A program made the translations under genes and the position numbers. The notes beneath the pieces are model-generated. The model did not search any database. It was not told the DNA's origin and saw only the letters and a program-made list of their open reading frames with translations. From the NCBI GenBank assembly GCA_019385495.1, contig GCA_019385495.1_4102.1: DNA of 64,000 nt. One strand, written 5' to 3'. Source of the DNA: a phage. Position 1 is the stretch's first letter. Each line of letters starts with the position of its first letter. Positions 1,780 to 32,205 of this stretch are shown in pieces.

Positions 1780-1780
1780 T

Positions 1781-3827: not shown

Positions 3828-4078
3828 CATTTATGATTGTTGGATTTCTATCAATATTAGTATTATTTTTTATAACAGTAATGTTTGTTATTGATGATAA
3901 TGACATTTCTCAACGAAACTATGAAGTGCGTTTTTCTGCACAAAATAATAAGTACTATATTGTAAACTGTATACACCGTAGTGAGAAAAGGGTAACAAGT
4001 AGATTTGGATTTACCATTTATTATAAAGACCGAGTAGAAGCTGACATGATTTGTCAGAAGCTTAATACTGTAGAATAA
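3824..4078 (+). CDS. small membrane protein
   Basis: Hydrophobic N-terminal helix; ATGA overlap with upstream stop. Confidence 0.45.
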   Translation: MTFMIVGFLSILVLFFITVMFVIDDNDISQRNYEVRFSAQNNKYYIVNCIHRSEKRVTSRFGFTIYYKDRVEADMICQKLNTVE

Positions 4079-4106
4079 AAAAAGGAGCCACAAGGCTCCT
4101 TTTTTG
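4079..4106. terminator. bidirectional intrinsic terminator
   Basis: GGAGCC-ACAA-GGCTCC hairpin flanked by A-run and T-run, between convergent gene ends. Confidence 0.6.
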
Positions 4107-4484
4107 TTAACCAGGGATGTTACAATAATACAAATCCCAAGGGTGATATTTCATTTCTCCAGTACTCAATTTAATTTTATGAAACTGGAATGATTCGGCA
4201 AATGCACTATCATCAATCTTAATACAAAAAGTATTTTTTGCTAAAGTTGGTGCAATCTCTAGTGCAGTTTTAGATGCATCTAATCTGATTTTATCTTTAT
4301 CAAAACTTGTTATAGTTACAAAACGATAAACATTAAAATCAGTGTCGATAAGATCGTAAACACAACTAGAACGTTGATTAAAGATGTTCAAGTTATATTT
4401 CAATTCACCGTTTATATTAGCGGCGGTTACACAAAAGCCGCCGATATTGAATGGTAATTTACCTTGTGCTGCTATAGCTTTCAT
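4107..4484 (-). CDS. hypothetical protein (only minus-strand gene in window)
   Basis: 125 aa ORF with AAGAGGA RBS on minus strand; ends at the bidirectional terminator. Confidence 0.45.
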   Translation of the reverse strand: MKAIAAQGKLPFNIGGFCVTAANINGELKYNLNIFNQRSSCVYDLIDTDFNVYRFVTITSFDKDKIRLDASKTALEIAPTLAKNTFCIKIDDSAFAESFQFHKIKLSTGEMKYHPWDLYYCNIPG

Positions 4485-4793
4485 ATTTTATTTCCTCTTA
4501 TTAATAAACAACTACTTTTACAGATTGTTGTACCTTTTATATTTACACCGTCAACTAAATATCCACCTAAAGTGAATGGAAATTGGTCTTGTCCTGCGAT
4601 TGGTTTTCCCATTAAGGGCACTCCTTATAAAAAAGCTTTACATTTGGTATGTGTTTGTGATAGAATCTTCACAGTGATTGTACTAAGGGGATTATCAGAT
4701 GAGGGAAATTTGAGTTAAGTACAGAAAAAGTTTGACTTAAGTGTTTAAGTACTATATTATTTATATCTTCCTAACCAAAATTAAGGATTTGTT

Positions 4794-5402
4794 ATGAAAA
4801 GACTATGGCTTGAGGTAGTACAAGCAGTAATGCTTCTGATGTTGATAAATTTTCCAGCCAGTGCTGGTATTGAAAGTAAAAATGTGATAAAGTACAATCC
4901 TGAAACACGTAATGTATATTTCATCTCAGATATTACGGATGGGTCACTAAAGCGTATGATGGAGTTGTATGATAAAGAACACTATGATACCATTACCATC
5001 ACATCGCCAGGTGGTGATTTTGATGCTGGGATTAAAATGGCAAACTTCGTTAGAGACAATGGTATAAATTTAATTGTTTCTAGGTATTGCAACTCAGCAT
5101 GTACTGTGGTATTCTTCAGTGTAGCTTTTGAAAAGCGATACATGATAAATCGCTCAGTACTGGGTCTTCATAACATTTCGATTAAAAGTAATGTTACTGA
5201 TGGTGATAATTCATTTGTGTCTGTAAGACAGCTATCAACTTTTACCGAAGAAATGGCAACAAAGGTAGGTTTCCTTTTTTCACTATATGCAGCAAATGGA
5301 ATCCCACCAGAAGTTCTATTTAGAGTTAGTCGTTCTCGTGGTGAAGATGTTGTAATATTAACAAAACCAGAACTGGTTTTTTACGGTTCAGTCAAACAAT
5401 AA
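4794..5402 (+). CDS. secreted ClpP/S49-like peptidase-fold protein
   Basis: N-terminal signal peptide (MKRLWLEVVQAVMLLMLINFPASA); ITSPGGD and NSAC segments resemble the ClpP/crotonase fold. Confidence 0.5.
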   Translation: MKRLWLEVVQAVMLLMLINFPASAGIESKNVIKYNPETRNVYFISDITDGSLKRMMELYDKEHYDTITITSPGGDFDAGIKMANFVRDNGINLIVSRYCNSACTVVFFSVAFEKRYMINRSVLGLHNISIKSNVTDGDNSFVSVRQLSTFTEEMATKVGFLFSLYAANGIPPEVLFRVSRSRGEDVVILTKPELVFYGSVKQ

Positions 5403-12038: not shown

Positions 12039-12218
12039 ATGAAATTTTTACTTGTACTAATCGCAGTTCTTATGGTATTATCTTGTTCAGTTAGTAATGG
12101 TTCATACATTTACGTATCAGTATTTGAAGAAGCTCCCGACAACTGTGTATTAACTCACACTGGAATTGTGTTAGTTAATGGTAAACCATCAATCGAGTAC
12201 TTATGTATAGGTGATTAA
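12039..12218 (+). CDS. small putative lipoprotein (59 aa)
   Basis: Below ORF-track cutoff; MKFLLVLIAVLMVLSC signal peptide with lipobox-like Cys. Confidence 0.4.
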   Translation: MKFLLVLIAVLMVLSCSVSNGSYIYVSVFEEAPDNCVLTHTGIVLVNGKPSIEYLCIGD

Positions 12219-12221
12219 ATT

Positions 12222-12452
12222 ATGAAATTATTATATATTTTTATTATTTCTTCTATTGTATTTCTGAGTGGATGTGCTCCTAAAGTTGATGAGATGGATG
12301 CTGAAATCATCCGTCAAGGTTTAACAAAACTAAATCACCAAGGAACACTATACGCATGTCATACTATGCGTCATGGGCAAGATCTTAATCTCATGTGCAG
12401 GAAGATTGTGAATCGCAAACGTCTTAATACTGTTCCGAAGGATGCACAATGA
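12222..12452 (+). CDS. putative lipoprotein
   Basis: Signal peptide with lipobox FLSGC. Confidence 0.5.
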   Translation: MKLLYIFIISSIVFLSGCAPKVDEMDAEIIRQGLTKLNHQGTLYACHTMRHGQDLNLMCRKIVNRKRLNTVPKDAQ

Positions 12453-15532: not shown

Positions 15533-15666
15533 TTGTGCAAATAAAAACCAATGTGACTTTTCCTTGATATAGGTCAAGAGAAATAACCTGTTTTGACGCT
15601 ATAATGTTGTCTGGTGATATTAAATATCTTCACCCCCAGATGATTTCAAAATACAAGGAATGTACA

Positions 15667-17472
15667 ATGCAATTAGATAAATTATATACTGACGTAACGA
15701 ATTTCCTCAATCAGAGCAATACTGATCTTACCAACGAAAATGCGAACAAAGATGCGAAATGCGTCAATACACACAGGGATTTACTTGCAGGTATCCTATC
15801 TAAGCATTATTCACAAGATGTTATTCCAAATGAGCTAATGCAGTGGCATAATGATGGTTATGGTCATATTCATGATTTAGACTACTATATCAGCCCATTA
15901 ACCAACTGTTGCTTAGTTAACTACCCAGATATGCTAAAAAATGGATTTACCATTGGTTGTGCCAAAATTGAAGAACCAAAGAGTTTTAGTGTAGCATGTA
16001 CAGTACTGACACAAATTGTTCAGGCTGTTGCTAGTTCCCAGTACGGTGGACAATCGTTGGCTCATATTGACGTTGGTCTTGAACCTTACGTCCAAAAGTC
16101 ATGGGATAAGCTGTTAGAAAAACAAAAGAAATATAATCTAAGTGATGAGTTCATTGAAGAAGAATTACGAAAAGAAGTATACGATGGATGTCAAACATTA
16201 CTTTACCAGACTAATTCAATGATTAGCACTAATGGACAAGCTGCATTCATTTCTCTTAGTTTAGGGCTTAATACTTCTAAATTTGGTAAATTAATCACTG
16301 AACAGTACTTAAAAGTTCATGAGAATGGTTTAGGTAAAGATAAGATTACTCCAGTGTTTCCTAAAGTAATTTTCTTTTTACAAGATGGTATAAACATGAA
16401 TACCAATGATAGTAATTATGACCTTAAACAGTTAGCTATGCGTTGTGCATCAAAACGAATCTACCCAGACTTTGTTTCAGTTCCATTAAATCACAAAGTG
16501 ACTGGAAGTAGTAGTACTGCTGTAACACCGATGGGCTGTCGTTCATTCTTAGGAAAATGGGAAGATTCAAATGGAAATGAACAATACAACGGTCGTTTCA
16601 ATTTAGGCGTAGTTTCTATCAATTTACCTCTAATTGCTCTTGAGTGTGCTTCTGATGGAGAGTTTTTTGATAAGATAGACGAGCACATGAATATTGCATA
16701 TCGTGCTCAGATGAACCGTGTGGAGCGTTTAAAAGGCACTAAAGCGAAGCAGAATCCAATTTTGTTCATGGAAGGTGCATTAGCACGTTTAGGTGCAGAA
16801 GAAACCATTGACAAGCTATTTTACAATGGTTATGCTAGTATTAGTATTGGTTATGTTGGTCTTGTTGAATGTTCAGAAATCCTCACTGGTTCTATCAGTA
16901 AGGAGTTTTGTATGTCAGTACTGAATTATATGAAAGTAAAATGTGATGAGTTCAAAAAAGAAAGTAATATTGCTTTTAGTCTATATGGAACTCCAGCAGA
17001 GTCGCTTTGTTATAAATTTGCACGTTGCATTGAAGCAAAATATCCTTCAGTACTAAAACGTGATTACATCACAAATTCCTTCCATCAACCAGTATGGGTA
17101 GAAAGTTCTCCATTTGATAAATGGAGTTATGAAGAAGGCTTTGCTTACCTAAGTAACGGTGGAAACATCAGTTATGTTGAATCTCCAAACTTAGCAAACA
17201 ACATTCAAGCACTTGAAACATTAGTTAACTATGCGTACACTAAGATACCATATTTTGGTATTAACCAACCAGTTGACCATTGTTATGAATGTGGCTTCCA
17301 GGGTGAGTTCAGTGTAGATAAACATGGTTTCCACTGTCCGGTATGTGATAATCGTAATGAGAAGACAATCTCAGTGATTCGTCGTGTTTCTGGTTACTTG
17401 GGTAATCCTTCTTCGCGTGGATTCAATAAAGGCAAACAACAAGAGTGTTGTGAGCGTATTCAGCACAAATAA
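15667..17472 (+). CDS. nrdD: anaerobic ribonucleoside-triphosphate reductase
   Basis: Glycyl-radical motif RVSGYLG, C-terminal Zn ribbon CYECG...CPVC, N-terminal region matches T4 NrdD pattern; start at M22 after AAGGAA; no intron. Confidence 0.85.
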   Translation: MQLDKLYTDVTNFLNQSNTDLTNENANKDAKCVNTHRDLLAGILSKHYSQDVIPNELMQWHNDGYGHIHDLDYYISPLTNCCLVNYPDMLKNGFTIGCAKIEEPKSFSVACTVLTQIVQAVASSQYGGQSLAHIDVGLEPYVQKSWDKLLEKQKKYNLSDEFIEEELRKEVYDGCQTLLYQTNSMISTNGQAAFISLSLGLNTSKFGKLITEQYLKVHENGLGKDKITPVFPKVIFFLQDGINMNTNDSNYDLKQLAMRCASKRIYPDFVSVPLNHKVTGSSSTAVTPMGCRSFLGKWEDSNGNEQYNGRFNLGVVSINLPLIALECASDGEFFDKIDEHMNIAYRAQMNRVERLKGTKAKQNPILFMEGALARLGAEETIDKLFYNGYASISIGYVGLVECSEILTGSISKEFCMSVLNYMKVKCDEFKKESNIAFSLYGTPAESLCYKFARCIEAKYPSVLKRDYITNSFHQPVWVESSPFDKWSYEEGFAYLSNGGNISYVESPNLANNIQALETLVNYAYTKIPYFGINQPVDHCYECGFQGEFSVDKHGFHCPVCDNRNEKTISVIRRVSGYLGNPSSRGFNKGKQQECCERIQHK

Positions 17473-17480
17473 GGTAAATT

Positions 17481-17813
17481 ATGGATTTAAAGCCAATTGT
17501 GGTTAACAAATACAAAGAACCGTATGATGTGTATATTGGACGTGGGTCTAAATGGGGAAACCCATTTACCCATATTAAAGATAAACAAACCAAAGCCGAG
17601 TTCATTGTTAGTACAAGAGAAGAATCAATTGAAAAATTCAGAGAATACATTATTGAACGTATTTCTTGTGGAGAAGTTAAGATTGATGAATTACTTGAAC
17701 TCGCAGGGAAACGCCTTGGTTGTTTCTGTAAACCAAAATCATGTCACGGCGATGTTCTTGTCGAAATAGTGAGTGCAATATTAGATGAATTACCAGACGA
17801 TAATCAAGGATGA
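17481..17813 (+). CDS. DUF4326-like protein
   Basis: YIGRGSKWGNPF motif recalled as the DUF4326 signature; lies between nrdD and nrdG. Confidence 0.5.
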   Translation: MDLKPIVVNKYKEPYDVYIGRGSKWGNPFTHIKDKQTKAEFIVSTREESIEKFREYIIERISCGEVKIDELLELAGKRLGCFCKPKSCHGDVLVEIVSAILDELPDDNQG

Positions 17814-18255
17814 TTTAGTAAATGGAGAGGGCGTTCGCTGCTCTTTATTTGTTAGTGGGTGTTCGCACGGATGTGATGGTTGCTTCAATGAAGAAGCATG
17901 GGATTACAGAAGTGGTCAATTGTTCAGTACTGAAACAGTTGAGATTATACTACAGGAACTAAAAAAACCATATGTTAGTGGTTTGTCACTTCTAGGTGGT
18001 GATCCATTAATGAAAAAGAATATAGATGAAGTTTTAAATCTATGCAAAGTAGTTAAAGAAACTTATCCTAGTAAAACTATTTGGTGCTGGAGTGGGTATA
18101 CTTTAGATGAGATTATGAAAAATCATTCTAAAGATATACTTCAGTACTTAGATGTATTAGTTGATGGTAAGTTTATCGAGTCCGAAAAGAATTTAAAATT
18201 ACCTTTCCGTGGTTCAAATAATCAAAGAATACTATATAAAAATAAAGATTTTTAG
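17785..18255 (+). CDS. nrdG: anaerobic RNR activating enzyme (radical SAM)
   Basis: CSHGCDGC (CX3CX2C) cluster motif; 156 aa; overlaps upstream gene by 29 nt. Confidence 0.85.
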   Translation: MNYQTIIKDDLVNGEGVRCSLFVSGCSHGCDGCFNEEAWDYRSGQLFSTETVEIILQELKKPYVSGLSLLGGDPLMKKNIDEVLNLCKVVKETYPSKTIWCWSGYTLDEIMKNHSKDILQYLDVLVDGKFIESEKNLKLPFRGSNNQRILYKNKDF

Positions 18256-21643: not shown

Positions 21644-24373
21644 ATGTCATCAAAACGAATTATAGGAAGTGCCGAGATCCTTGGGAACTTGGCAATTGGA
21701 CAAAGGTACGCTATGCGTACTTTTAATGGAACCTCACCGAATGCCAATACTGGAATTGTTCAATATCCAATATATAAGCGTTCAGAAGTTCAAAGTATTT
21801 TAGATATGTTGCCTATATCACGTGTAGGAGAAATGGATTACTTACCATTAAACGTAAGTGGGTCGTATGAAGGTGCTACACCTATGTCAAGTGACCAAGT
21901 AGTTCAGCCAACAATTATTGAAGATGATGGAACCGCCGTTGTTCTGCGTAGCGGAACCAATGGTAGTACTAAAGGTTTTTATTATTCATTTATACGAGAA
22001 CTCCGAAATATAACTATGATTTCACAAGAAAGTGTTATTTCAACCAATTCAATGTATAAACCTTCAATTATGAGTAGTACTGAAAATATTAAGTATTTTA
22101 TTGGCTCTAATGGTTATGAGATGCTTGGATGTTTAAGTACTGAAGATAATTATATTTTTACTATAACCAATGGCACATTTAACGAAATATCACATATTCA
22201 TGCTAAAGTGCCAAGTACTTCTTTTGGTAATGATATGCCAATATATACACATATTGTTGGGACAAAGGTTTATATTTGGTGTAAAGATAAAAGTGTTTCT
22301 AATTTAGGATTAGCACTTTCAATTTATACAGTAGAGCTAAGTGATGTGAAAGCAAGCTCAATGGCATCATTAACAAAAGTTACTGGGTTATCAGGTCAAA
22401 CTGTTCGAAACACAAGTTATTCTGCATCTAATAACATAAGAGTGTTCGATAAATTATATAGTGTTGGTACTAGCTCGGATTCATTATTCGAAGTTACATC
22501 ACCAGTATCACGTGTAGAATTTTCAGACTATACAGACTTTAACATTCAAGCCAACGTTAGTCCTGATTTATCAAAAATACGTGTAACTTTATATCCAACA
22601 CATCGAATGGTTACACCTTTGTATATTTCAACAGTTTATGGTACTGGAATAAGTTTTGTTTATAATATAAACTCAAAATCTATGTCACTAGATGGTAGTG
22701 CTCGTGCACCTGCAACTGTTTCATATAATAATGGATTTCAAGTTTCTAACCCATTTGAAATTAATATGGTCAACTTCACAGGGACAACTGCTGCTGGTGT
22801 ATTAGGAAACGCAGGTGGTTTATGTCAAACTAAAGATGGTTTGGTATTTGCATCTAAATTTAGATGGAGTTCAACTGAATTTTATGGTCTACAACGATAT
22901 AAGGTTAGTGGTACACCGTTTGATTCATGGGTTGCCAGTACTAGAACCGCAAGTAACGTTATAAATGCAAACGTTTTACCAGTTTTTGGTAGTGCTGTTG
23001 GTGCAAACCTTTTAGGTGTACGTTTCATCGATAATAGAAAAATATTATTAGCATGTTCTGGTACGTATGATGATGTAACATATAATTATAATAATACTGT
23101 TTTTTCTGAAATAGGTTCACAACCAACATATCAATATAACTCAGTTCAAAATAATACTACATTAAATGGTTTTGCTCCACAATCTAATCGTAAACAAATA
23201 GGCGATGATTTTACATACACTGCTATGATTTCTCTTGTTGATACCGATGGTAGTGTTAGATGCTATGGAACATCATTCATTGAAGGTGTATATAAAACAA
23301 GTGGTGGATTATTAAATCCAGATACTTTAGAATTTGATGAAACATATACAATAGAACCAACGGTATTAGAATCATTAAAACAAGATATTTTTGCTAATAT
23401 AGGAAACTCTGGCATTGTTGGTACACTATCTGGACAAATTGTATTATATTATGTACCTGATAATACTTTTTCTAAATCCATCGCAGTAGTTTCAGCATAT
23501 AATCTTAACAATAACCAAGGTTATGCAATCTATGCCGAAGTTGATGTTGTATTATCTGGAACTAACATAACTTCAGCTACATTGGTAAGTACTAGATATG
23601 AGACACTTAGTTCTGTTACAGGAATTATTACTGAAGCATATATGAAACGTTGTACTGGTCTAACAGTTGCTAAATATTCAGGATTTGGTTACATTGGTGT
23701 TGATGCCGTTCATCAATTTTCACAACCAGGTAATGCACAATTTAAGATGATGATAGCTAAAACAGTAGATGGTGTCATAACATCAAATCGTTTTTTATCA
23801 TCTAGTTACATCCAACTCGGTGCAGCATATCAACATGGTGTTATTCCTGGTGTTGGTTTTGGATATTACAATTTTCAAGATTCTGACTATCAAACCAAAT
23901 CTGTATTCAGCGTTTTTGGTACAACATCTGCTGAAATGGATGGTTTAATTAGCGGAAATGGTAGCGTTAAAGAAAAGATTGTGGTAGTATCACAAGACGT
24001 TGCACAAGGATTCTCAGTGTACTTTACACGTGAAGTTCCGGTGTTTTTAGGTGGAATTTTCGACAGACTACCTATACAAAGTGTAGATTTAAGTACTGTA
24101 AAAAGTAATCCAGCTAATACTACGTTCTATTTGTATATACAAATGAACAGGAATACTAAGAAAGCTTCATATGTTATTAGTACTGAAACTATTGATGAAT
24201 CTTTAACTAGCACTTACATTGGTAAGATAGTTACTGGAACTTCAGGAATAACTTCAATTGATACAGAAAAAGTAACTCGTTTTTTGACATATCGTCCAAG
24301 TACAACGAAACGTGGTTCAGCGATACCTGCCAGTACTGGTGTACCATCAGGTCCAGGTACACGTTGGAAATAA
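21644..24373 (+). CDS. tail fibre protein, paralogue 2 (909 aa)
   Basis: Start at M31 of ORF 21554 after AAGGAAAAG; shared blocks LRSGTNGS and VVSQDVAQGF...KSNPANTTFY. Confidence 0.6.
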   Translation: MSSKRIIGSAEILGNLAIGQRYAMRTFNGTSPNANTGIVQYPIYKRSEVQSILDMLPISRVGEMDYLPLNVSGSYEGATPMSSDQVVQPTIIEDDGTAVVLRSGTNGSTKGFYYSFIRELRNITMISQESVISTNSMYKPSIMSSTENIKYFIGSNGYEMLGCLSTEDNYIFTITNGTFNEISHIHAKVPSTSFGNDMPIYTHIVGTKVYIWCKDKSVSNLGLALSIYTVELSDVKASSMASLTKVTGLSGQTVRNTSYSASNNIRVFDKLYSVGTSSDSLFEVTSPVSRVEFSDYTDFNIQANVSPDLSKIRVTLYPTHRMVTPLYISTVYGTGISFVYNINSKSMSLDGSARAPATVSYNNGFQVSNPFEINMVNFTGTTAAGVLGNAGGLCQTKDGLVFASKFRWSSTEFYGLQRYKVSGTPFDSWVASTRTASNVINANVLPVFGSAVGANLLGVRFIDNRKILLACSGTYDDVTYNYNNTVFSEIGSQPTYQYNSVQNNTTLNGFAPQSNRKQIGDDFTYTAMISLVDTDGSVRCYGTSFIEGVYKTSGGLLNPDTLEFDETYTIEPTVLESLKQDIFANIGNSGIVGTLSGQIVLYYVPDNTFSKSIAVVSAYNLNNNQGYAIYAEVDVVLSGTNITSATLVSTRYETLSSVTGIITEAYMKRCTGLTVAKYSGFGYIGVDAVHQFSQPGNAQFKMMIAKTVDGVITSNRFLSSSYIQLGAAYQHGVIPGVGFGYYNFQDSDYQTKSVFSVFGTTSAEMDGLISGNGSVKEKIVVVSQDVAQGFSVYFTREVPVFLGGIFDRLPIQSVDLSTVKSNPANTTFYLYIQMNRNTKKASYVISTETIDESLTSTYIGKIVTGTSGITSIDTEKVTRFLTYRPSTTKRGSAIPASTGVPSGPGTRWK

Positions 24374-24440
24374 ATTTAAAGCTCGTCTATTGACGGGCTT
24401 TTCTTTTATGTGTATAATTGAATAAAAATAGGAGGAAATT

Positions 24441-25007
24441 ATGGTCAAATCTTTATTACCGCCACCAAAACGTCACAAAATCAAAGAAATGAAAGAACAA
24501 CGTACATTAAAGATGTACATCAATTTAGTTAAGTTACTGTGTAAAAGTCCATCGCTCAAAGCAGAGTTTAAAACTGATGATGACCGCAAAGCACTAATTG
24601 AGATGAAGTATATGCTCAGTAAAATGTCCTTTTACAAATTTGTAAAAGAATACGCATCTGACCCATTTAGTCCTCGTTGGAGAGCCAAACCAAGAGAGTA
24701 TTTTTACGGTGGTTCATATACGGATCTCATTCAAGACACAGTGATGGGAGTTGAATTTGAAATCGATTATGAGCCGAATGGTGTGGAAAGCTGGCCGATT
24801 GAGAAACGTTTACCAAGTGAAGAAGAAATTTATGTTTATGCAAGAAAACTTTCAAATTTCAGTTCAAGAATTACTCTAGGCAATTTAGATTCATTTATTA
24901 TTTTCTATACACGTGTTGGTGTAGATAAAATGGTAACTAAACTCAATGAACTTTCATTACAACAAAAACAGATTAATGCATACAAAGACATTACTGATTT
25001 ATACTAA
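24441..25007 (+). CDS. paralogue-family protein A (candidate fibre chaperone)
   Basis: One of three tandem paralogues; AGGAGG RBS. Confidence 0.5.
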   Translation: MVKSLLPPPKRHKIKEMKEQRTLKMYINLVKLLCKSPSLKAEFKTDDDRKALIEMKYMLSKMSFYKFVKEYASDPFSPRWRAKPREYFYGGSYTDLIQDTVMGVEFEIDYEPNGVESWPIEKRLPSEEEIYVYARKLSNFSSRITLGNLDSFIIFYTRVGVDKMVTKLNELSLQQKQINAYKDITDLY

Positions 25008-25013
25008 TGAGGA

Positions 25014-25532
25014 ATGGATATGTTTTTTGGATCAGTTGGAAAACAAAACAGTACTTTAATTTGGCATGAAATTATCTTTAAAATTATATCTAAAAGCTAC
25101 TCACTAAAGGATATTATCACCACAGATAATGATAGACGTATCCTGTTAGATGCAAAATATAAATTGAGCAAACACCCTTTACTTTCTTTAATCATTGATT
25201 ACGTTAATGATTATGAATCTAGTCGTTGGAAGTGGGAAGACGGCGGTTTATTTCGTGGAAAAACATTCTACGGTGCGGAACGATATGTTTTCAGTGATAC
25301 ATCAAATGGCGTTAAGTTTGTTATTAGAAACTTTAACTCCAAAGAAAATGATTATCTTGAAAGTGGAGTGAAAGTATATATCGATAATAGCAATGTACTA
25401 ACATATGACGAATCACTAATTATGTTACAAATAATGCGTGGAGTTGAAGGTGTAAGAAACAACCTTACTAAATTGAAAATCCAGCAAAATGATATACATA
25501 ATAGACAGAAAATTAAGGGTTTATATAAATGA
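25014..25532 (+). CDS. paralogue-family protein B
   Basis: Paralogue of 24441 and 25529 (shared K-Y-x-LSK N-terminal block). Confidence 0.5.
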   Translation: MDMFFGSVGKQNSTLIWHEIIFKIISKSYSLKDIITTDNDRRILLDAKYKLSKHPLLSLIIDYVNDYESSRWKWEDGGLFRGKTFYGAERYVFSDTSNGVKFVIRNFNSKENDYLESGVKVYIDNSNVLTYDESLIMLQIMRGVEGVRNNLTKLKIQQNDIHNRQKIKGLYK

Positions 25533-26038
25533 TTTCATTTTTCAAAAAGAAACAAAAAGTTGATGAAACCGGATTAGAATCGTTTCTATGGACTCTTATC
25601 ATCAAAAAAAGTCCATTGATAAAAGAATATGCTATCAATGATGCTAATAGAAAAACTATCATTGAATACAAATACGAATTATCAAAATGTGATCCAATCG
25701 TTTATCACTTTGCGAAGTACTGTTCAAAAAATTTATCGGATATCACAATCGACCACGAGTCAGTCCCGATGAGTTTTCCTTATGGTGATTGGGTAGATAC
25801 TTTTGATATTTTTGATGGGTCAAATGGTTTCAGTTTCTTTTACTCGTCAAATAAAGCAAATGTTCGTATTAAAACAGACATAGGTTGGACACAGCATAGC
25901 TCAAATAAAGAAGATTATAATTTATTAGCTGACGTATACCGAAGTGTGAAGAATTCAAAGGATATTGATGAAAGAATTAAAAAGCAAAATCGTATATCTT
26001 TATCACTTGAAACATACAAGTCAAAGTATGGTGGTTAA
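25529..26038 (+). CDS. paralogue-family protein C
   Basis: Paralogue; ATGA overlap. Confidence 0.5.
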   Translation: MISFFKKKQKVDETGLESFLWTLIIKKSPLIKEYAINDANRKTIIEYKYELSKCDPIVYHFAKYCSKNLSDITIDHESVPMSFPYGDWVDTFDIFDGSNGFSFFYSSNKANVRIKTDIGWTQHSSNKEDYNLLADVYRSVKNSKDIDERIKKQNRISLSLETYKSKYGG

Positions 26039-26040
26039 CT

Positions 26041-26442
26041 ATGACTACAGTTGATGATATCTATAGCACTATACGCAATATGAGTACAGATAGAAAAGTA
26101 TTTGGCGATAAAGAAAAATCTAAGTGTTATGGTATTGATTCTTTTGATATAATTTCTTATGAGTACAATACAAGTGGAAATAGTTCACTGAATATCGTCT
26201 GTCCTCGTGACCCAGAAAATAATTTTATGTATGTTGAAATTAATAATGATGGAATGTTTTTTACAAAAGTTTTCAAAGGTGGAATTAATTACGAACCTAT
26301 TGAATGTATGAATGAAGAAACTTTCTTTCAAGAAGATACAATTATCAATTTAGGTTTTAGTTTTGATGATTATAAAACATTAGAACATGACTTTAATCGT
26401 TATTATAATGGTTTCTTAAAGGAGTTAACAATTTATCTATGA
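26041..26442 (+). CDS. hypothetical protein
   Basis: 133 aa ORF. Confidence 0.5.
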   Translation: MTTVDDIYSTIRNMSTDRKVFGDKEKSKCYGIDSFDIISYEYNTSGNSSLNIVCPRDPENNFMYVEINNDGMFFTKVFKGGINYEPIECMNEETFFQEDTIINLGFSFDDYKTLEHDFNRYYNGFLKELTIYL

Positions 26443-28709
26443 ATAACCAATATATTGAACAAACAATAGTGAAACACTTGGCTGGGTCACAAGCCTACGG
26501 AACCAGTACACCTGAAAGTGATACTGATTATCGTGGTATTTTTCTTGCTAATAAAGAATTTATTCTTACACCCTTCTATAAGGTCAAAGAGGTAGCTGAT
26601 AAAAGCGAAGAAGATACTAAATTCTATGAGTTGAATCAGTATTTAAAATTATACACTGAAGCTAACCCTAATATTCTTGAATCACTTTGGGTTGAACCTG
26701 AACACATTGTTGAAAGTACTGAAATTTATGACTATCTTCGTTCATTTAACCAAAAACTTCTTAGTTCCAAGATTGCATTTTCATATACTGGTTATGCATA
26801 TAATCAGATTAAGCGTATGACAAATCATCACGGTTGGATGGATAAAGAGCGTATTGCTGAAAAACGATTAAATGAGATTTTAGAAGAACACCCTGTCGAT
26901 GAGGTTCTTGCGTGGATGTATGATTCATTCCCACAGTATCTTGTTGAACGTTTAGATACATCGAACTTACATCCATTTAATGCTAAAAAGATTGATTTTG
27001 AAAAATATATGCGTGATACATCATTGCAGTTAGTTTCGAAAAATCCATTAAAGCAATATCATTTCGTAAGATTAGTGCATAACTACACTACTGAAAAAAT
27101 TCTTGATCGTGATTTCAATTTATTGAATTTTAATAATGGTTATGAACTAATTCATTACGGAGAAAACATTTTTGCGATTGTTAAAAATCCGAATGAAAGT
27201 ACTATCAATGGTGATGGTTCATTGCGTTATTTTTCTAAAGAGCGTAGTACTGAAGAGTTGAAAACTAAACCAGAACTAATTGTCAAATTTAACGAAAAAG
27301 AATATCAGGAAAATAGTGAGAATAGGAAAAGTTATCATAAATGGAAAGAAAATCGTAATGCCAAACGTGCTATTTTAGAATCACAACACGGATACGACTG
27401 TTATAGTTTTGATACTGAATTCTTAACTAAAGATGGTTGGAAATTATTTGACGACATCACTGATAAAGATCTATTAGCGACTTTTGATAAAAATCACAAA
27501 ATAGAGTATCAAAAATACACAGAACGTTTTGATAATTTATACAATGGAAATCTTTACCATTTCACTGGTCATCACCAAGATACGTTAGTGACTGCAAATC
27601 ACAGAATGTATGTTAAGAATTATGCACGTAATCAGCAAAAAGATATGTCAGAATGGCAATTTGTTGAAGCAGCACAATTAAAAGAAACTTATAAAATTTT
27701 GAATACATTATCTCCAATAACAAAGGAATATAAAGATAAAAAAAGCCCAATTGACTATATGGATATCAAAGTTTATCTTCAACTGATGGGATGGTTTCTT
27801 TCAGATGGTAGTATAAGTTTTAGAGATGGAAAAGTAAAATCATTATACATTTCACAATCAAAAGCCAGTCCTGGTATGCGTTGTGCTTTATCAAAATACA
27901 AACAATCTGGACAAATGATATTTCAGGAATACATTAACGAAAGAAAAGATTACCAATCAAATGATGAATCAAGATTTGTATTTCCACGTGAAGTGGCTGA
28001 AGCATTATATAATGATTGTGGGCATGGATCATATAATAAAAGAATTCCAAATTGGGCATTTGATTTAACAAAACGAAAAATGGATTTTCTGCTAAAAGGT
28101 TTGTTGCAAGGTGATGGTACAAAACGTAATTTGGTCAATCATGATGACACATATGTATATTATACTGCTAATTCATTATTAGCTGATGATGTTCAAAAAC
28201 TAGCATTACTGTGCGGTTATGAAACATCGAAATGGGGACCATACACAAACGAAACTAATTTTGGTTATATTGAAATGTATCAAGTTCATATCAATATGAA
28301 ACCTAAATCAGAAAAAATAAACATGAAACAAAATCTTGAAAAAATTCCAGTAACTAACTACAGAACTGTTTGTTTTTCAGTTCCGAACGGTACACTGGTT
28401 ACTCGTAGAAATGGTAAAACTGCATTACATGGAAACTGTAAACATGCTATGCACACAATCCGACTTTTGAATAGTGCAGAAGAAGCATTACAAAGTGGAA
28501 TTATTCAAGTTAAACGACCAGATGCACAAATGTTGATGGATATTCGTAATGGTAAATGGAAGTATGAAGAAGTCTTAGAATATTTCGATGATAAAGTACA
28601 ATACATTCGTGATGTTCTATATAAGAAATCAGTACTTCCTAAAAAACCAAACATCAAGTTAGCATCAAAAATTATCATTGATATTAGAGAAATGCAATGG
28701 TATAAGTAA
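26439..28709 (+). CDS. Pol-beta-superfamily nucleotidyltransferase interrupted by an intein
   Basis: N-terminal GSQAYG-x8-SDTDYRG NTase motif; 346-residue insertion with intein and LAGLIDADG hallmarks. Confidence 0.7.
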   Translation: MNNQYIEQTIVKHLAGSQAYGTSTPESDTDYRGIFLANKEFILTPFYKVKEVADKSEEDTKFYELNQYLKLYTEANPNILESLWVEPEHIVESTEIYDYLRSFNQKLLSSKIAFSYTGYAYNQIKRMTNHHGWMDKERIAEKRLNEILEEHPVDEVLAWMYDSFPQYLVERLDTSNLHPFNAKKIDFEKYMRDTSLQLVSKNPLKQYHFVRLVHNYTTEKILDRDFNLLNFNNGYELIHYGENIFAIVKNPNESTINGDGSLRYFSKERSTEELKTKPELIVKFNEKEYQENSENRKSYHKWKENRNAKRAILESQHGYDCYSFDTEFLTKDGWKLFDDITDKDLLATFDKNHKIEYQKYTERFDNLYNGNLYHFTGHHQDTLVTANHRMYVKNYARNQQKDMSEWQFVEAAQLKETYKILNTLSPITKEYKDKKSPIDYMDIKVYLQLMGWFLSDGSISFRDGKVKSLYISQSKASPGMRCALSKYKQSGQMIFQEYINERKDYQSNDESRFVFPREVAEALYNDCGHGSYNKRIPNWAFDLTKRKMDFLLKGLLQGDGTKRNLVNHDDTYVYYTANSLLADDVQKLALLCGYETSKWGPYTNETNFGYIEMYQVHINMKPKSEKINMKQNLEKIPVTNYRTVCFSVPNGTLVTRRNGKTALHGNCKHAMHTIRLLNSAEEALQSGIIQVKRPDAQMLMDIRNGKWKYEEVLEYFDDKVQYIRDVLYKKSVLPKKPNIKLASKIIIDIREMQWYK
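27399..28436 (+). mobile_element. intein with LAGLIDADG homing endonuclease (residues 321-666)
   Basis: Starts CYSFDTEF (block A), TANH (block B), LMGWFLSDGSI and LLKGLLQGDGTK (LAGLIDADG), ends ...ALHGN followed by Cys. Confidence 0.7.
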
Positions 28710-28877
28710 CATATACAAGTGTAATGGTACTAAAAATGCCATTACACTCAATAAATACTCAATATAAATTAACACAAGGATTAAGTATGGCACAACAAAT
28801 TTTCACAGATATCCACACTACCGGAGTTATTAAATTTCAAAATAATTTTTCAGGTGCAACTGGTGTAGACATTAAAA

Positions 28878-29414
28878 ATGATGGTTTTAACATTATCAGT
28901 ACTCGGATCTATTGATGGTGAAGATAGTTCTCTTAGTGATTCTGTGATTGCATCATTCGGAACTAATAAAAACAGTTCTTTTATTATATCTGGATGGACT
29001 GGAATGACTGATTCTGAAAATAATGTTAAGATAAAAGCTAAAGCTACTAACGAGAATCATGAAACAGAATGGGTAACATTATATGATAGTGCAAGTAATA
29101 AGTTATATAATGTACTAAGTTCTAATAATATTTTAATTAATCCACTGTCGGGCAATGCTGTTTTTAATATTAATTTATCTGATAGAAATACTACTATTTC
29201 GATTGGTGCGGCTCCTACTGAAGTTTATTCAATTACCATCCTATTAACACAACAAACAGGTTCAAACCTAGTTAATTGGGGTTCTAATGTTAAATGGTCA
29301 TATAACAGACCAGTTGTTCTTTCTTATGAAATTGGTGAAAAAGATATTATTTCATTAGAAACATATGATAAAGGAGTTACATGGTACGGTGCATTAATTA
29401 GAGCAGGAGTATGA
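28878..29414 (+). CDS. hypothetical protein, possibly joined to a 42-aa upstream ORF
   Basis: 178 aa; upstream ORF (ATG about 28787, AAGGATT RBS) ends inside this ORF in another frame. Confidence 0.45.
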   Translation: MMVLTLSVLGSIDGEDSSLSDSVIASFGTNKNSSFIISGWTGMTDSENNVKIKAKATNENHETEWVTLYDSASNKLYNVLSSNNILINPLSGNAVFNINLSDRNTTISIGAAPTEVYSITILLTQQTGSNLVNWGSNVKWSYNRPVVLSYEIGEKDIISLETYDKGVTWYGALIRAGV

Positions 29415-29415
29415 T

Positions 29416-32205
29416 ATGTTAAACAATAATATTGATAATATTGTACAACTTCTTTATGGGCATCACAAATTTATTGAAAGAAATACTGGTGATACAATAG
29501 ACCCAACAGTACAACATTATGTGGTGAATAATCAGGGTGTTTTGGCGAACAACCGTCATTTTATTAACTATTCTGCAATGGAAGGTCAACCAAACGGTGA
29601 CGGGACAACAGAAGGTCAAAGTCTATTAATTTTAGGATACATTTATGCGTATCTGGCAACAAATGATCCAATGTTTTTAGATAAAGCCAAATGGTACTGG
29701 GATGCATATCATCAGTACTTTTATGCTGGGCGTGAATTACCAGACCCACCAACCCCACTGCAATGTAACTGGATAGTTAATGCCAAAGAACCGATTTTGG
29801 CTAACTGGCCTTTAGCTGATGATGGATGGCCTACACATGGTGGTTTCAAGGGTGTAGAATTTACATTTACAAATGGACAATGTAAAATACCACATGGTGC
29901 ACCTTATTATGGTCAGTTCTTGGATAAAGTAACATTTGCATTCAAAGGTGCTTTAGCATGGAACCAAATAAATGCGTCAGTAAAAGCTTTATTACCAGAT
30001 GGTAGTGTTGATTGGGATACACCAGGTGAACAATATGATGTTGACTGGATTATTGATTTCATGGGTAGAAAAATCGACTGGGATGGTAATATTTTAGCAG
30101 AAGGTTTTGACGAATCTGAAAAAGGAACTGTTCAATTAAAGAATACAACAATTAATGGTGTATATAAATTAAATTTTGCTAATCGTCAACCAGTAGAATA
30201 TGGTGGTGTGATAATTCAACGAAATGAAATGCAACACAACCGCCCTCTTCATGTTCCAATTGATTTGGAATTTGCTGATAACGCATCAGATGCAGAATTA
30301 TGGTTTAGTGATGCTTCTTATTTGTTATATAAAATAACAAAAGAAAGAAAACATTATTTGGGTTGGAAATGTTCACTACTAACGTGTTATGCTTATGGTG
30401 ATATTGACTCCAGAGATAAATTTTTCAGACAAAGTACAATTGTAACCACACCATTCACTGATGGTATTTCCTATGAATATTTTTATCCAAGTGATGCTAT
30501 TGCTAAGTTTGGTAGAAATTCTCTAGGATATATTACTATCAGGCAAGACCAAAGTGCACAAAGTACAATGGAACAACAAGCTATTTGGTTCAGGGTCAAT
30601 GCTGATTCTAAATTACTTGTAGACTATGGTGGTGTATGTGATGATGGTAAGCCGTTATCATTTAAACCAGTACTGGAATTGTCAAAAACAAAAAATGACC
30701 ATGATGTTGTTCGTTATCGTTGTGGCTTACCGGAAAGTAAAGACCAAAATATCACACATTCATTAACACCTTTAAGTGCATTTGTTAGAGAAAAGAAAGC
30801 AGATGGTTCCCCTTATATAATTGCTGATAGTAGAATTGTTGTTCCTTATGGTGCAGCTACGTCCGAAATGATATATAGTACTGATATATTAGTTACACGC
30901 CGCGATACCATTAATCAGTTAGTTTGTGGTGAAGATGATGGTGCTGTTATTGGATTTTGGCTATTAGCAACAAATAAGTCTGAAGTTAAATCTTTTACAT
31001 ATCGTTCATATGAAGATGATTACAATATAAGAATTGTAGATGATAATGGTTGGAGATGGTGGTGGATGATTCCTGCAACACACGGGGAATGGACTACAAT
31101 CACACTAAGTTCCGATACATTACGTTTATCTGGGTATCAGCCAAATCATCCAAGTTCTGACCCAAGACCAGATGCACCAGTTTATAGTGAACTAGAAGAT
31201 ATTACTATTTTACCTGATACAACCCCAGTAGATGGTGTTGCTGCAATAATTGATTGGTATTGTATTAATGACATTCCAGAATTATACACGGATGCTGACG
31301 GTGATGACTATACTATGACATTTTCAATAACAATTGCAGGTGAATCACCATATACTGCACAGTTAGGGGATTGTGTAATCAAGGATTATTTGTTAAACTC
31401 ATTGCATTACACACCAGGAACAATACCATTTTCTAACATCACTGACCCGTATGCGAACCAGTATTCAGGATGGCGTGGTTTACCGTATCCAGGTTATCAA
31501 TATCCTGTGATATATTGTTTTAAAGACCAGCCGGTAGATAACACACGCTTAGGAAACATGTTAAGCTTTATGAAAGATTCCCAAACATGGTTTACTCAAC
31601 AATTCGGTACTGTTGGTCCGTGTGCACAAGCATATGTTTGGAACCGCTGGGATAACTTAAAATATGGTGAACCAGATACATTTACTATGCTACATTGGGG
31701 TGATCAAGCATGGAGTGGGTATGAACCACGTGCGTTCTTTGGGGCTGCCAGAGCATGGCAAGAACTCGCAGAGAGAGGAATTGAACCACCAGCAGATCTT
31801 GTTGAATTTTGTGAGAATTGGATTCACTTTTTAATTCAATTTCAAAAAGATAATGATGGTCGTTCACCAACAATCTTCAATAAAGATGGCACAGTTGAAG
31901 GTCCAGATTGGGACTTTACAGGTCATATGTGTGGGTTGTGGTTAGCTGGGGCTTGTGCTGCTGGATTGGCTGGATGTAAAATAGAAGGTCTAACAACACT
32001 CGCTGATAACTTAGTTCTCGAACTTCAAAAGAATTATGTTATTGTAAATCCAGGTTCACCAATGAATGGTTCATGGAGTCCAGCAGTCAGAGAAGGTACT
32101 GATAATGGTATGTTTTTTGGTTTCTGGGCAGGTGAGATTATGCGTGGATTGGGATTATACTCAATGTACCGCTTAAACACACCAAATCGTTTCCGTGATT
32201 TATAA
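29416..32205 (+). CDS. large protein (929 aa), possible virion-associated glycan-degrading protein
   Basis: Follows fibre cluster; Trp/Tyr/Gly-rich C-terminal half; no motif firmly recognised. Confidence 0.5.
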   Translation: MLNNNIDNIVQLLYGHHKFIERNTGDTIDPTVQHYVVNNQGVLANNRHFINYSAMEGQPNGDGTTEGQSLLILGYIYAYLATNDPMFLDKAKWYWDAYHQYFYAGRELPDPPTPLQCNWIVNAKEPILANWPLADDGWPTHGGFKGVEFTFTNGQCKIPHGAPYYGQFLDKVTFAFKGALAWNQINASVKALLPDGSVDWDTPGEQYDVDWIIDFMGRKIDWDGNILAEGFDESEKGTVQLKNTTINGVYKLNFANRQPVEYGGVIIQRNEMQHNRPLHVPIDLEFADNASDAELWFSDASYLLYKITKERKHYLGWKCSLLTCYAYGDIDSRDKFFRQSTIVTTPFTDGISYEYFYPSDAIAKFGRNSLGYITIRQDQSAQSTMEQQAIWFRVNADSKLLVDYGGVCDDGKPLSFKPVLELSKTKNDHDVVRYRCGLPESKDQNITHSLTPLSAFVREKKADGSPYIIADSRIVVPYGAATSEMIYSTDILVTRRDTINQLVCGEDDGAVIGFWLLATNKSEVKSFTYRSYEDDYNIRIVDDNGWRWWWMIPATHGEWTTITLSSDTLRLSGYQPNHPSSDPRPDAPVYSELEDITILPDTTPVDGVAAIIDWYCINDIPELYTDADGDDYTMTFSITIAGESPYTAQLGDCVIKDYLLNSLHYTPGTIPFSNITDPYANQYSGWRGLPYPGYQYPVIYCFKDQPVDNTRLGNMLSFMKDSQTWFTQQFGTVGPCAQAYVWNRWDNLKYGEPDTFTMLHWGDQAWSGYEPRAFFGAARAWQELAERGIEPPADLVEFCENWIHFLIQFQKDNDGRSPTIFNKDGTVEGPDWDFTGHMCGLWLAGACAAGLAGCKIEGLTTLADNLVLELQKNYVIVNPGSPMNGSWSPAVREGTDNGMFFGFWAGEIMRGLGLYSMYRLNTPNRFRDL

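Follow-up and report, generated by a model that had tools for sequence, protein, structure and literature searches.

A total of 23 inteins in the nucleotidyltransferases (NTases) of cluster C1 mycobacteriophages were reported by Kelley et al. 2016 (PMC5050341). These NT inteins were analyzed again in 2025, and incongruence between their intein and extein trees has been documented (bioRxiv 10.1101/2025.01.02.630785). Another phage intein, the class 1 Bethlehem gp51 RDF intein, has a penultimate Gly; it splices completely, and a G-to-H change at this position slows splicing (PMC5050341). Class 3 inteins are devoid of an N-terminal nucleophile and carry a WCT triplet, which consists of Trp at B:12, Cys at F:4, and Thr at G:5 (PMC2807308, PMC7891396). 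As for the host enzyme family, RlaP adds one or two NMPs to damaged RNA 3' ends (3'-OH), as reported for Pseudomonas RlaP enzymes only, and the residues that are best conserved in this enzyme line its interdomain cleft (PMC12776372). In the literature, no paper was found on the intein described below in Asteriusvirus or other coliphages.

The window, i.e., the whole 64,000-nt stretch of DNA analyzed here, belongs to Asteriusvirus and represents a 121Q/PBECO4-like coliphage (E. coli jumbo phage). It contains an insert that was confirmed as an intein with a LAGLIDADG homing endonuclease within an NTase gene, an observation far beyond chance (Table 1). The 756-aa open reading frame (ORF), its Pol-beta NTase motif, the intein itself, and the Cys1, TANH, two LAGLIDADG motifs, terminal Asn, and next Cys that delimit or characterize it are all located where the initial annotation of this DNA had placed them. 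It is very likely that the insert represents a complete, mobile, and probably functional intein, in which a Hint domain is split by a two-motif LAGLIDADG endonuclease, in the RlaP gene of a 121Q-like phage; its splicing and cleavage are inferred from the features described below.

Table 1. Features of the intein-containing nucleotidyltransferase gene (nucleotide positions refer to the window)
Feature	Position (nt)	Strand	Details
Precursor ORF, RlaP-family nucleotidyltransferase split by the intein	26439..28709	+	756 aa plus stop; from Pfam and an identical protein elsewhere
N-extein, aa 1-320	26439..27398	+	Pol-beta NTase domain (G16 S17 ... D28 x D30) and middle region; ends ...QHGYD
Intein, 346 aa (Cys1 ... 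Asn346)	27399..28436	+	1038-nt insertion absent from intein-free alleles; first residues CYSFDTEF at aa 321 (nt 27399); HGN end at aa 666 (nt 28436), followed by Cys
N-terminal splicing region, intein aa 1 to ~110	27399..27728	+	Block A (CYSFDTEFLTKDGW); block B LVTANHRMYV with T65 (B:7), H68 (B:10), M70 (B:12); TANH (TxxH) at ORF aa 385-388, intein T65-A-N-H68
LAGLIDADG homing-endonuclease domain, intein aa ~115-300	27741..28298	+
LAGLIDADG motif 1, LMGWFLSDGSI	27783-27815	+	ORF aa 449; acidic residue D136 (intein numbering)
LAGLIDADG motif 2, LLKGLLQGDGTK	28089-28124	+	ORF aa 551; acidic residue D239; reads LLKGLLQGD239G
C-terminal splicing region, intein aa 301-346	28299..28436	+	Block F RTVCFSVP (Cys325, nt 28371-28373); block G ALHGN with His344, Gly345, and Asn346 (nt 28434-28436)
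C-extein, aa 667-756 plus stop	28437..28709	+	Motif CKHAMHTIRL; first residue is the +1 nucleophile Cys (nt 28437-28439)

The ATG of the precursor ORF overlaps the stop codon of the upstream ORF (26041..26442). A Pfam search of the 756-aa product detected RlaP (PF10127) with an E value of 9.9e-15 and 55.3 bits against a cut-off of 23, and the joined exteins match phrog_388 'nucleotidyltransferase' (E 2.1e-76). The NTase motifs GSQAYG and SDTDYRG were found at aa 16 and aa 27, respectively. Judged by its sequence, the host gene is a member of the RlaP family, with the Pol-beta NTase motif hG[GS]...[DE]x[DE], a C-terminal helical domain, and the above-threshold Pfam match; by family membership it is a putative RNA-repair nucleotidyltransferase, for which 3'-end addition is predicted here. 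Across 36 extein homologues, G16, S17, D28, D30, and D320, as well as K322, A324, H326, and R329 (extein numbering), do not vary, and the +1 position is occupied by T (26 sequences), C (7), S (1), R (1), or A (1). GYD-CKHAMH is the best-conserved motif of the C-terminal helical domain of the NTase. The invariance of D320, K322, A324, H326, and R329, along with the published conservation of the RlaP cleft, supports the view that the intein is inserted into a probable functional motif of the enzyme.

The boundaries of the insert are defined by comparison with intein-free alleles. In 121Q gp506 (410 aa) and approximately 23 other Asteriusvirus records, both flanks are matched at 94-99% nucleotide identity and exactly 1038 nt are missing, so that these alleles read ...HGYD-CKHAMH...; the site is likewise empty in PBECO4, BF17, ph0011, vB_Ec-M-J, A4, and Turkey5. 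Relative to 121Q gp506, the insert is an exact in-frame 1038-nt indel with flanks 98.7% and 99.6% identical (98.65% for the N-extein against the first 960 nt and 99.63% for the C-extein against the last 273 nt), and the joined 410-aa exteins align end to end, which bears out the clean junction between GYD and CKHAMH that had been predicted in the initial annotation. The DNA sequence by itself leaves an uncertainty of about 5 nt in the boundary, as ACTGT is present at both junctions, and the intein limits given in Table 1 are those set by protein hallmarks, as read from the translated sequence. An identical 756-aa protein was found on two independent contigs, one of them the Logan assembly of run SRR15249489, and the insert is therefore not an assembly artefact of the window. 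Three other explanations, namely a BIL-type Hint domain, a simple insertion of a domain in frame, and a chimeric assembly, were rejected in view of the terminal Asn and +1 nucleophile, the alleles with an exactly empty site, and the occurrence of the insert in independent assemblies.

All expected splice-junction residues (Cys1, T65-A-N-H68, Asn346, and Cys+1) are present in the intein and conserved in sets of 30 and 55 homologues. Among the 30 family members, H68, R336, and N346 are invariant, and C1, T6, E7, G13, W14, N67, and M70 in the N-terminal splicing region, along with N338, G339, and G345 in the C-terminal one, are at least 90% conserved. Searching Pfam and NCBIfam for a Hint or intein-splicing domain gave no match above threshold, and only LAGLIDADG_3 passed; assignment of the splicing domain hence rests on PHROG and NCBIfam sub-hits, in which both splicing halves match intein-bearing families, on profile and PDB matches, and on the predicted fold. 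By sequence, the family profile matches PI-PkoII (6e-16), the AceL NrdHF intein (1e-9), and the TliVMA intein (6.5e-7), and aa 6-73 match the AceL NrdHF intein 6zgq in both phmmer and profile searches. An AF2 model of the intein was obtained with a pLDDT of 94.9 and a pTM of 0.92, in which the N-terminal splicing region is composed entirely of beta-strands. The best Foldseek matches of this model are the TliVMA intein (E 2.3e-15), PI-SceI, PI-PfuI, and PI-TkoII, with Hedgehog Hint domains and mini-inteins also detected, and the modelled structure has a Hint fold.

The endonuclease domain matches Pfam LAGLIDADG_3 (PF14528) with 27.3 bits against a cut-off of 22.5, and in the family profile both LAGLIDADG motifs align with those of PI-PkoII. 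Foldseek analysis of this part of the model retrieved I-DmoI, I-SceI, and I-AniI. G131 and G137 are invariant, and G238, D239, and G240 nearly so, across the 30 family members. With its two helices, acidic residues, and profile match, the domain has the sequence features of a monomeric two-motif LAGLIDADG homing endonuclease, the cleavage itself being predicted, with indirect support from purifying selection (dN/dS 0.13) and from a distribution among related phages that fits homing. The same Hint plus double-motif LAGLIDADG architecture is found in TliVMA/PhoVMA (7qsu, 7qss, 7qst), PI-SceI (1vde), PI-PfuI (1dq3), and PI-TkoII/PI-PkoII (2cw7). The model matches these solved endonuclease-containing inteins with Foldseek E values of 2e-15 to 4e-10 and TM-scores of approximately 0.5-0.6 over its whole length, whereas sequence identity to the archaeal and yeast proteins is only about 10%. 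The window intein, at 346 aa, is also more compact than these inteins (361-537 residues), and it has H-G-N in block G and Cys at F:4 where they have H-N and Asp.

Full-length homologues of the intein were detected at the same GYD-[C/S/T]K site in approximately 90 cluster C1 mycobacteriophages (Bixzunavirus gp3 nucleotidyltransferase), and likewise in Lak megaphages, dozens of metagenomic clusters, and the Pectobacterium phages DU_PP_I and DU_PP_IV. The tblastn search against Bixzunavirus NTase inteins gave 100% coverage at 33-34% identity with E values around 1e-48, indicating homology throughout, LAGLIDADG domain included; the DU_PP_I and Lak-B9 inteins are also homologous. In a six-way alignment, the junctions and the insertion site are identical. 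The cluster C1 NT inteins (such as those of Ava3, Alice, and Cali) reside in the same host family (PF10127/IPR018775), at the same site (G[Y/W]D, then C ... HGN, then [C/T]K.[A/G].H..RL), and share with the window intein Cys1, TxxH, the block F VCF, and the HGN ending. They also show the same population signature, namely patchy presence and inteins more alike than their exteins. Unlike these phages of actinobacteria, the host phage here (Asteriusvirus) is a jumbo myovirus of 350 kb that infects the Gram-negative E. coli, its exteins are highly diverged from and about 120 aa longer than the mycobacteriophage NTase, which lacks the middle region, and the +1 residue is Cys instead of the Thr in Ava3. 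Based on the host family, the insertion point, and the full-length homology to published mycobacteriophage inteins, the window intein can be assigned by sequence to the NT-intein allelic family. The claim in the initial annotation that an NTase host is unusual for an intein does not hold, as the same PF10127/IPR018775 family is already a documented host (PMC5050341; bioRxiv 10.1101/2025.01.02.630785). Neither the type of element nor the class of host gene is new, and the intein is a clean further example of a described family.

All 55 diverse (metagenomic) NTase inteins examined use the same site and have Cys1, the block F Cys, and an xGN or xSN end. Their endings are HGN (33 sequences), QGN (21), and HSN (1), i.e., [H/Q]GN in 54 of 55. 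Gly345 occupies block G:6, where the penultimate His, a typical but non-obligatory intein residue, is absent; the initial annotation had pointed out this Gly, and such variation is already known in phage inteins (PMC5050341). The penultimate Gly is a trait of the family.

The conserved residues suggest the following splicing route. After translation of the 756-aa precursor, Cys1 would carry out an N-S acyl shift at the junction between Asp(-1) and Cys1, aided by Thr65 and His68 of block B. The N-extein would then be passed to Cys+1 by trans-thioesterification, and cyclization of Asn346 would free the 346-aa intein and restore the 410-aa nucleotidyltransferase with a native GYD-CKHAMH peptide bond. 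During co-infection, the freed intein would presumably cut intein-free alleles site-specifically, at about the junction of CACGGATACGAT and TGTAAACATGCTATGCAC, and the cut allele would gain the intein through recombinational repair.

The class 1 features Cys1, Cys+1, and Asn346 are all present, but F:4 is an invariant Cys and not the Asp that is usual in standard class 1 inteins (PMC2807308). Given Gly345 and this Cys, the chemistry may deviate from the canonical class 1 path. One way in which it might do so, which we consider rather unlikely, is that a genuine intein follows a class 3-like or hybrid route, where Cys325 attacks the N-terminal junction instead of or besides Cys1 and the block F branched thioester is passed on to Cys+1, or where a regulatory disulfide links Cys325 to either Cys1 or Cys+1. 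No family member lacks Cys325 (30 of 30 and 55 of 55 sequences have it), and this residue sits 21 residues before the terminal Asn, a spacing that is kept in all 55 NTase inteins and resembles that of Cys320 and Asn341 in the class 3 prototype MP-Be DnaB (PMC2807308). Moreover, the AceL NrdHF split intein (6zgq), which among solved structures comes nearest in sequence to the N-terminal splicing half (E 1e-9), is experimentally class 3, with an atypical M-C-T triplet (M70, C124, and T144) and no penultimate His (PMC7891396). It shares with the window intein His68 (B:10) and Met70 (B:12), which are numbered identically, Cys at F:4, and the lack of a penultimate His. It differs in having Ala1 and Thr at G:5, and in being naturally split and devoid of an endonuclease, whereas the window intein is contiguous, with an invariant Cys1, a LAGLIDADG domain, and His at G:5. 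Only the F:4 Cys agrees with the class 3 definition: Cys1 is retained in 55 of 55 members, while class 3 inteins are without an N-terminal nucleophile; Trp at B:12 is replaced by Met70; and Thr at G:5 is replaced by His (His344 here) or Gln. In addition, the inteins to which Kelley et al. compared the NT intein are mycobacterial ones of class 1, and their class 1 inteins use a position-1 nucleophile (PMC5050341). When the 44-aa C-terminal splicing segment was searched against PDB sequences with phmmer, no match was obtained, and the designation of Cys325 as F:4 is based on spacing and family conservation.

A broader and equally tentative proposal, to which we give a low probability, is that the NT-intein clade, with hundreds to thousands of members having an invariant Cys1 and F:4 Cys, Met at B:12, and an [H/Q]-G-N ending, is a mechanistic hybrid of class 1 and class 3, in which the F:4 Cys would be an obligatory second branch point or a redox switch gating maturation of the RNA-repair enzyme. 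If true, this would provide an evolutionary link to the atypical 'MCT' class 3 AceL NrdHF intein. The combination of Cys1, F:4 Cys, and an xGN end poses a concrete, testable question for intein mechanism and engineering.

With regard to mobility, only 2 of about 34 related phage records carry the intein, and TH47 is the only other Asteriusvirus carrier. The exteins of the two carriers are 77% identical and their inteins 88.4% identical at the nucleotide level, while the window exteins are 98.9% identical to those of intein-free 121Q and the TH47 exteins 97.9% identical to those of intein-free vB_Ec-M-J. Between the window and TH47, dS is 0.56 for the intein and about 1.95 for the N-extein, with the C-extein saturated; the dN/dS ratio of the intein is 0.09 overall, with values of 0.13 in its endonuclease part and 0.04-0.05 in its splicing parts. 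The gap between intein and extein divergence, together with the intein-free nearest relatives, supports a spread of the intein that was probably driven by homing. The comparative data (empty alleles, intein/extein divergence, and dS) also support a site that is used for homing now or was so recently; in this respect the initial annotation is supported, and its argument from an unusual host is not.

Vertical inheritance of an intein ancestral in Asteriusvirus, with the patchy distribution reflecting many independent precise losses, appears very unlikely. Such an origin would be compatible with the occurrence of both carriers in one genus, with inteins that are not near-identical, and with the lack of an unambiguous co-conversion tract. 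Strict descent, however, predicts that the intein has diverged at least as much as its host gene, whereas the N-extein has a dS about 3.5 times as high as the intein. Furthermore, the nearest relative of each carrier (98-99% identical exteins) has a perfect empty site, so that repeated exact deletions would be needed, and similar incongruence of intein and extein trees is documented in mycobacteriophage NT inteins. The flanks of the window differ from those of 121Q only at base -1 and in a patch at -214..-133, and the 132 nt beside the junction are identical to 121Q; a comparison of these flanks with 121Q and TH47 revealed no clear donor tract of co-conversion, with 7 of 13 variants matching TH47. 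Since the inteins are 88% identical and not near-identical, any transfer between the window and TH47 lineages would not be very recent and may have proceeded via unsampled donors.

Alternatively, the intein could be a decayed or domesticated element, inactive in cleavage or splicing and carried as a fixed passenger of its lineage, which we regard as highly improbable. The homing cycle does predict endonuclease decay following fixation, and the missing penultimate His would fit this idea. On the other hand, the reading frame is uninterrupted, the acidic residues of both LAGLIDADG motifs and every splice-junction residue are retained, and the dN/dS ratios are low in the endonuclease domain as well as in the splicing parts. 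The intein is far from fixed among the related records, which is when the endonuclease would be expected to be active. Efficient splicing with a penultimate Gly is known from another phage intein (PMC5050341): the Bethlehem gp51 RDF intein provides a precedent for activity with Gly345, although it resides in a metallophosphoesterase host at another insertion site and is only distantly related (a Switzer-type match with 21.8% identity).

The surroundings of the gene were also inspected. The two 'anaerobic ribonucleotide reductase' CDS of BF17 had raised the suspicion of a split nrdD associated with an intron or a homing-endonuclease gene. This was rejected, as NrdD is intact in the window (622 aa, full profile) and is accompanied by a DUF4326 ORF and an NrdG activase. 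No RNA family was detected by Rfam across the whole window, and a promoter and terminator scan of positions 24000-29500 gave background levels except for one terminator-promoter pair. This pair lies at 24378-24418, upstream of the gene cluster.

The importance of the finding is modest. With it, the range of an intein family published from actinobacteriophages comes to include E. coli jumbo phages, and the same searches add Pectobacterium Certrevirus and Prevotella Lak megaphages. Two diverged intein-plus phages, each with a near-identical intein-minus sibling able to grow on laboratory E. coli, represent a tractable setting for the measurement of homing and co-conversion. A single intein lineage thus follows one conserved RNA-repair NTase motif through phages of three bacterial phyla, which makes the NT-intein family a useful natural system for the long-range dissemination of inteins.

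By megablast, the window falls in Asteriusvirus, whose members, 121Q and PBECO4 among them, are jumbo myoviruses of E. coli with genomes of 350 kb; flanking DNA identity is 97-99%. Both flanks of the nucleotidyltransferase (NTase) gene (query 26000-29000) were matched by approximately 23 records, which span 1963 nt compared with 3001 nt in the window. In 121Q, gp506 is a 410-aa protein annotated as 'nucleotidyltransferase', and its DNA matches the 960-nt N-extein at 98.65% and the 273-nt C-extein at 99.63% identity. Its uninterrupted junction, ...GGATACGAT followed directly by TGTAAACAT... (...HGYD-CKHAMH...), is exactly the clean GYD-CKHAMH junction that the initial annotation had set as a test, and the same site is found in PBECO4, BF17, ph0011, vB_Ec-M-J, A4, and Turkey5. 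The insert is 346 aa long (1038 nt), and its removal leaves joined exteins of 410 aa; the precursor ORF and every motif previously reported were located at the expected positions. An identical 756-aa protein occurs in two independent contigs of the collection, the one shown being a Logan assembly (run SRR15249489). The insert is not marked by composition, since its G+C content (30.5%) is close to that of the exteins (32.0% and 30.8%) and the whole window (33.9%).

Coordinates of the NTase precursor, its motifs, and other features of the window
Feature	Nucleotides	Strand	Residue of 756-aa ORF	Remark
NTase precursor ORF	26439..28709	+		756 aa encoded
GSQAYG			16	
SDTDYRG			27	
Intein start, CYSFDTEF	27399		321	
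TANH			385	
LAGLIDADG motif 1, LMGWFLSDGSI			449	
LAGLIDADG motif 2, LLKGLLQGDGTK			551	
Intein end, ...LHGN	28436		666	Cys next
NrdD-NrdG region	15604..18255			contiguous NrdD, DUF4326 ORF, NrdG
NrdD				622 aa; complete profile
DUF4326 ORF	17481..17813			
NrdG activase	17785..18255			
Tandem ORF 1	24441..25007	+		188 aa
Tandem ORF 2	25014..25532	+		172 aa
Tandem ORF 3	25529..26038	+		169 aa
HNH ORF	44838..45464	+		208 aa; in 44835-45469
CCA-adding tRNA nucleotidyltransferase gene	45470..46582			

The host protein belongs to the RlaP family of Pol-beta NTases (PF10127, E 9.9e-15 over aa 13-131); over their whole length, the joined exteins align with phrog_388 'nucleotidyltransferase' (E 2.1e-76). 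For the insert alone, Pfam LAGLIDADG_3 scored above its cut-off (27.3 versus 22.5 bits); NCBIfam returned only sub-threshold matches to intein-containing PolII, DnaB, and GyrA models. The N-terminal part resembles an intein-bearing thymidylate-synthase PHROG and the last 54 residues an intein-bearing PhoH PHROG. A family profile built from 30 homologues and run against solved-structure sequences matched PI-PkoII (6e-16), the AceL NrdHF intein (1e-9), and the TliVMA intein (6.5e-7), with both LAGLIDADG motifs aligned to those of PI-PkoII. The best PDB matches to the AlphaFold2 model (pLDDT 94.9, pTM 0.92) are whole endonuclease-containing inteins, namely TliVMA (7qsu, E 2.3e-15), PI-SceI, PI-PfuI, and PI-TkoII. 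Next in rank, the free LAGLIDADG enzymes I-DmoI, I-SceI, and I-AniI match the middle domain of the model, and Hedgehog Hint domains and mini-inteins match its splicing domain. The insert is thus securely a Hint-fold intein with a monomeric double-motif LAGLIDADG endonuclease, and we infer that it is active in both splicing and cleavage. Profile matches, model, and empty alleles together bear out the original proposal of such an intein inside an NTase gene.

The further suggestion that an NTase host is unusual was not upheld. In tblastn searches with the insert alone, full-length homologues were detected in about 90 mycobacteriophages of cluster C1 (Bixzunavirus), within the gp3 nucleotidyltransferase (100% coverage, 33-34% identity, E ~1e-48), in the Certrevirus phages DU_PP_I and DU_PP_IV of Pectobacterium, within a 700-aa protein annotated as 'putative nucleotidyltransferase', and in megaphages Lak-B8 and Lak-B9. 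Precursor alignment shows homology through the endonuclease and both splicing halves and a single insertion point (G[Y/W]D, then C...HGN, then [C/T/S]K.[A/G].H..RL). Such inteins are already on record: 23 were listed in the cluster C1 'NT' (Nuc-transf domain) protein by Kelley et al. 2016, who described insertion adjoining conserved motifs (PMC5050341), and a 2025 actinobacteriophage survey includes the IPR018775 nucleotidyltransferase as a known host, with cluster-C1 NT inteins exemplifying near-identical inteins in divergent exteins (bioRxiv 10.1101/2025.01.02.630785). A profile search of 1.84 billion representatives yielded 40,406 hits at E<=1e-3; the nearest intein matches in these large, partly metagenomic collections are RlaP proteins cut at the same site, and dozens of single-intein RlaP proteins of 620-770 aa stand among the best 150 hits. 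In all 55 such proteins examined, the junction is of the GYD type, the intein begins with Cys1, and another Cys precedes the terminal Asn by 21 residues; position +1 is Ser (24), Cys (20), or Thr (11). Their inteins end in HGN (33/55), QGN (21/55), or HSN (1/55), so that the penultimate Gly, correctly noted at first, is no oddity. Given these homologues, the published record, and the 55 proteins, the NTase host is ordinary for this lineage and the Gly is a lineage trait; the Bethlehem RDF intein, another phage intein, splices efficiently with a penultimate Gly (PMC5050341).

The DU_PP_I CDS (locus 2932-5034) contains its intein at this shared site without annotation, and the paper on Certrevirus CB7 lists inteins of that phage only in helicase, NrdA, and NrdB (PMC7344957). 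More distant clade members, in Lak-A1 (a Prevotella phage; locus 1715-3820) and entries P0023, P0024, and P0026-P0039, keep Cys1, the block F Cys, and the xGN end in other host proteins (among them a Lak-A1 protein, thymidylate synthases of the ThyX type, and a polymerase-like protein), which indicates extein switching within the clade.

By spacing, Cys325 occupies block F position 4 (F:4), 21 residues before the terminal Asn, as does Cys320 relative to Asn341 in MP-Be DnaB; class 1 inteins usually carry Asp here, and class 3 inteins Cys (PMC2807308). Among solved inteins, the N-terminal half is closest to AceL NrdHF, which is experimentally class 3 (M70, C124, T144, Ala1; PMC7891396); the window intein likewise has Met70 (at B:12), a block F Cys, and no penultimate His. 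The NT-intein family differs from class 3 in its invariant Cys1, in lacking Trp at B:12, and in carrying His/Gln rather than Thr at G:5, and is therefore not assigned to that class. The default reading is a class 1 mechanism in which block F/G departs from the canonical form. That Cys1 and the F:4 Cys are both invariant is the sole aspect with real potential for novelty.

Among the matching Asteriusvirus records, only TH47, which is unannotated, also carries the intein. Nucleotide identity of the exteins is 98.9% between the window and intein-free 121Q, 97.9% between TH47 and intein-free vB_Ec-M-J, and 77.2% between the window and TH47, whose inteins are 88.4% identical. For the same pair, dS is 0.56 in the intein, 1.95 in the N-extein, and saturated in the C-extein. 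The intein lineages therefore split much later than the host genes, and perfect empty sites stand beside each of them, which points to horizontal gain through homing and speaks against vertical inheritance with recurrent exact loss. The low dN/dS (0.09 for the whole intein, 0.13 for the endonuclease domain, and 0.04-0.05 for the splicing parts) argues for maintenance of both activities. Between the two Asteriusvirus sublineages, the empty sites show four wobble differences no further than 12 nt from the junction on either side, so the endonuclease would have to tolerate synonymous variation, as LAGLIDADG enzymes are known to do. P0139, another RaK2-like RlaP, holds a third, DU_PP_I-like intein at this site. 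No clean co-conversion tract was found among the window, 121Q, TH47, and empty-site relatives.

Inteins typically sit in conserved motifs, and this one interrupts the C-terminal domain within its most conserved motif: D320, K322, A324, H326, and R329 are invariant in 36 intein-free homologues, as are G16, S17, D28, and D30 of the NTase motif (36/36). D320 is followed by Thr in 26 of them, by Cys in 7, and by Ser, Arg, and Ala in 1 each. In the extein model (pLDDT 90.9), which resembles NTase-like proteins, HalB, KNTase, and HEPN domains weakly in fold, residues 318-320 form a short loop capping helix 321-340 of the C-terminal helical domain. RlaP enzymes are RNA-ligase-associated; two from Pseudomonas extend damaged RNA 3' ends by one or two NMPs and are required to restore function of heavily damaged tRNA, and the most conserved residues line a cleft between the NTase and helical domains (PMC12776372). 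The motif at the insertion site may line this catalytic cleft. In jumbo phages, RlaP is the most prevalent RNA-end-restoring NTase (PMC7824862).

Several other features were observed. The HNH ORF, directly upstream of the CCA-adding enzyme gene, matches PHROG 953 'HNH endonuclease' (E 2.5e-66; profile positions 198-402 of 420 only) and has no Pfam match. The surrounding ~636-bp segment is absent from 121Q, the only genome in which the gap was mapped, and probably from G17, Sharanji, and slurp01, given their 97% coverage of the 25-kb query. This second strain-specific mobile-element candidate is probably a free-standing homing endonuclease gene, possibly truncated. Around 12045-12262, BF17 is longer by ~1.4 kb (a WGR-domain protein gene and a small ORF); phAPEC6 and UB share the longer span (~1.3 kb, WGR-domain protein annotated), and it is missing from the window, E9.1, and JP4. 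Three adjacent ORFs without Pfam matches, diverged tandem paralogues that share a KYxLSK-type motif, directly precede the NTase operon partner; the first two are 27% identical over 183 aa (E 9e-15). On the 5' side of the cluster, 24378-24418 holds a terminator-like hairpin together with a strong sigma-70-like promoter. A split gene was considered from the two 'anaerobic ribonucleotide reductase' CDS of BF17 and rejected, these being NrdD and NrdG. No Rfam family exceeded threshold anywhere in the 64-kb window.

Taken together, the intein is a further case of a known, widespread allelic family; neither its host-gene class is unusual nor its biology novel. It is worth an annotation note, since no report of this intein in Asteriusvirus or other coliphages was found in the literature, and as a convenient E. 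coli-phage system it lends itself to homing experiments.
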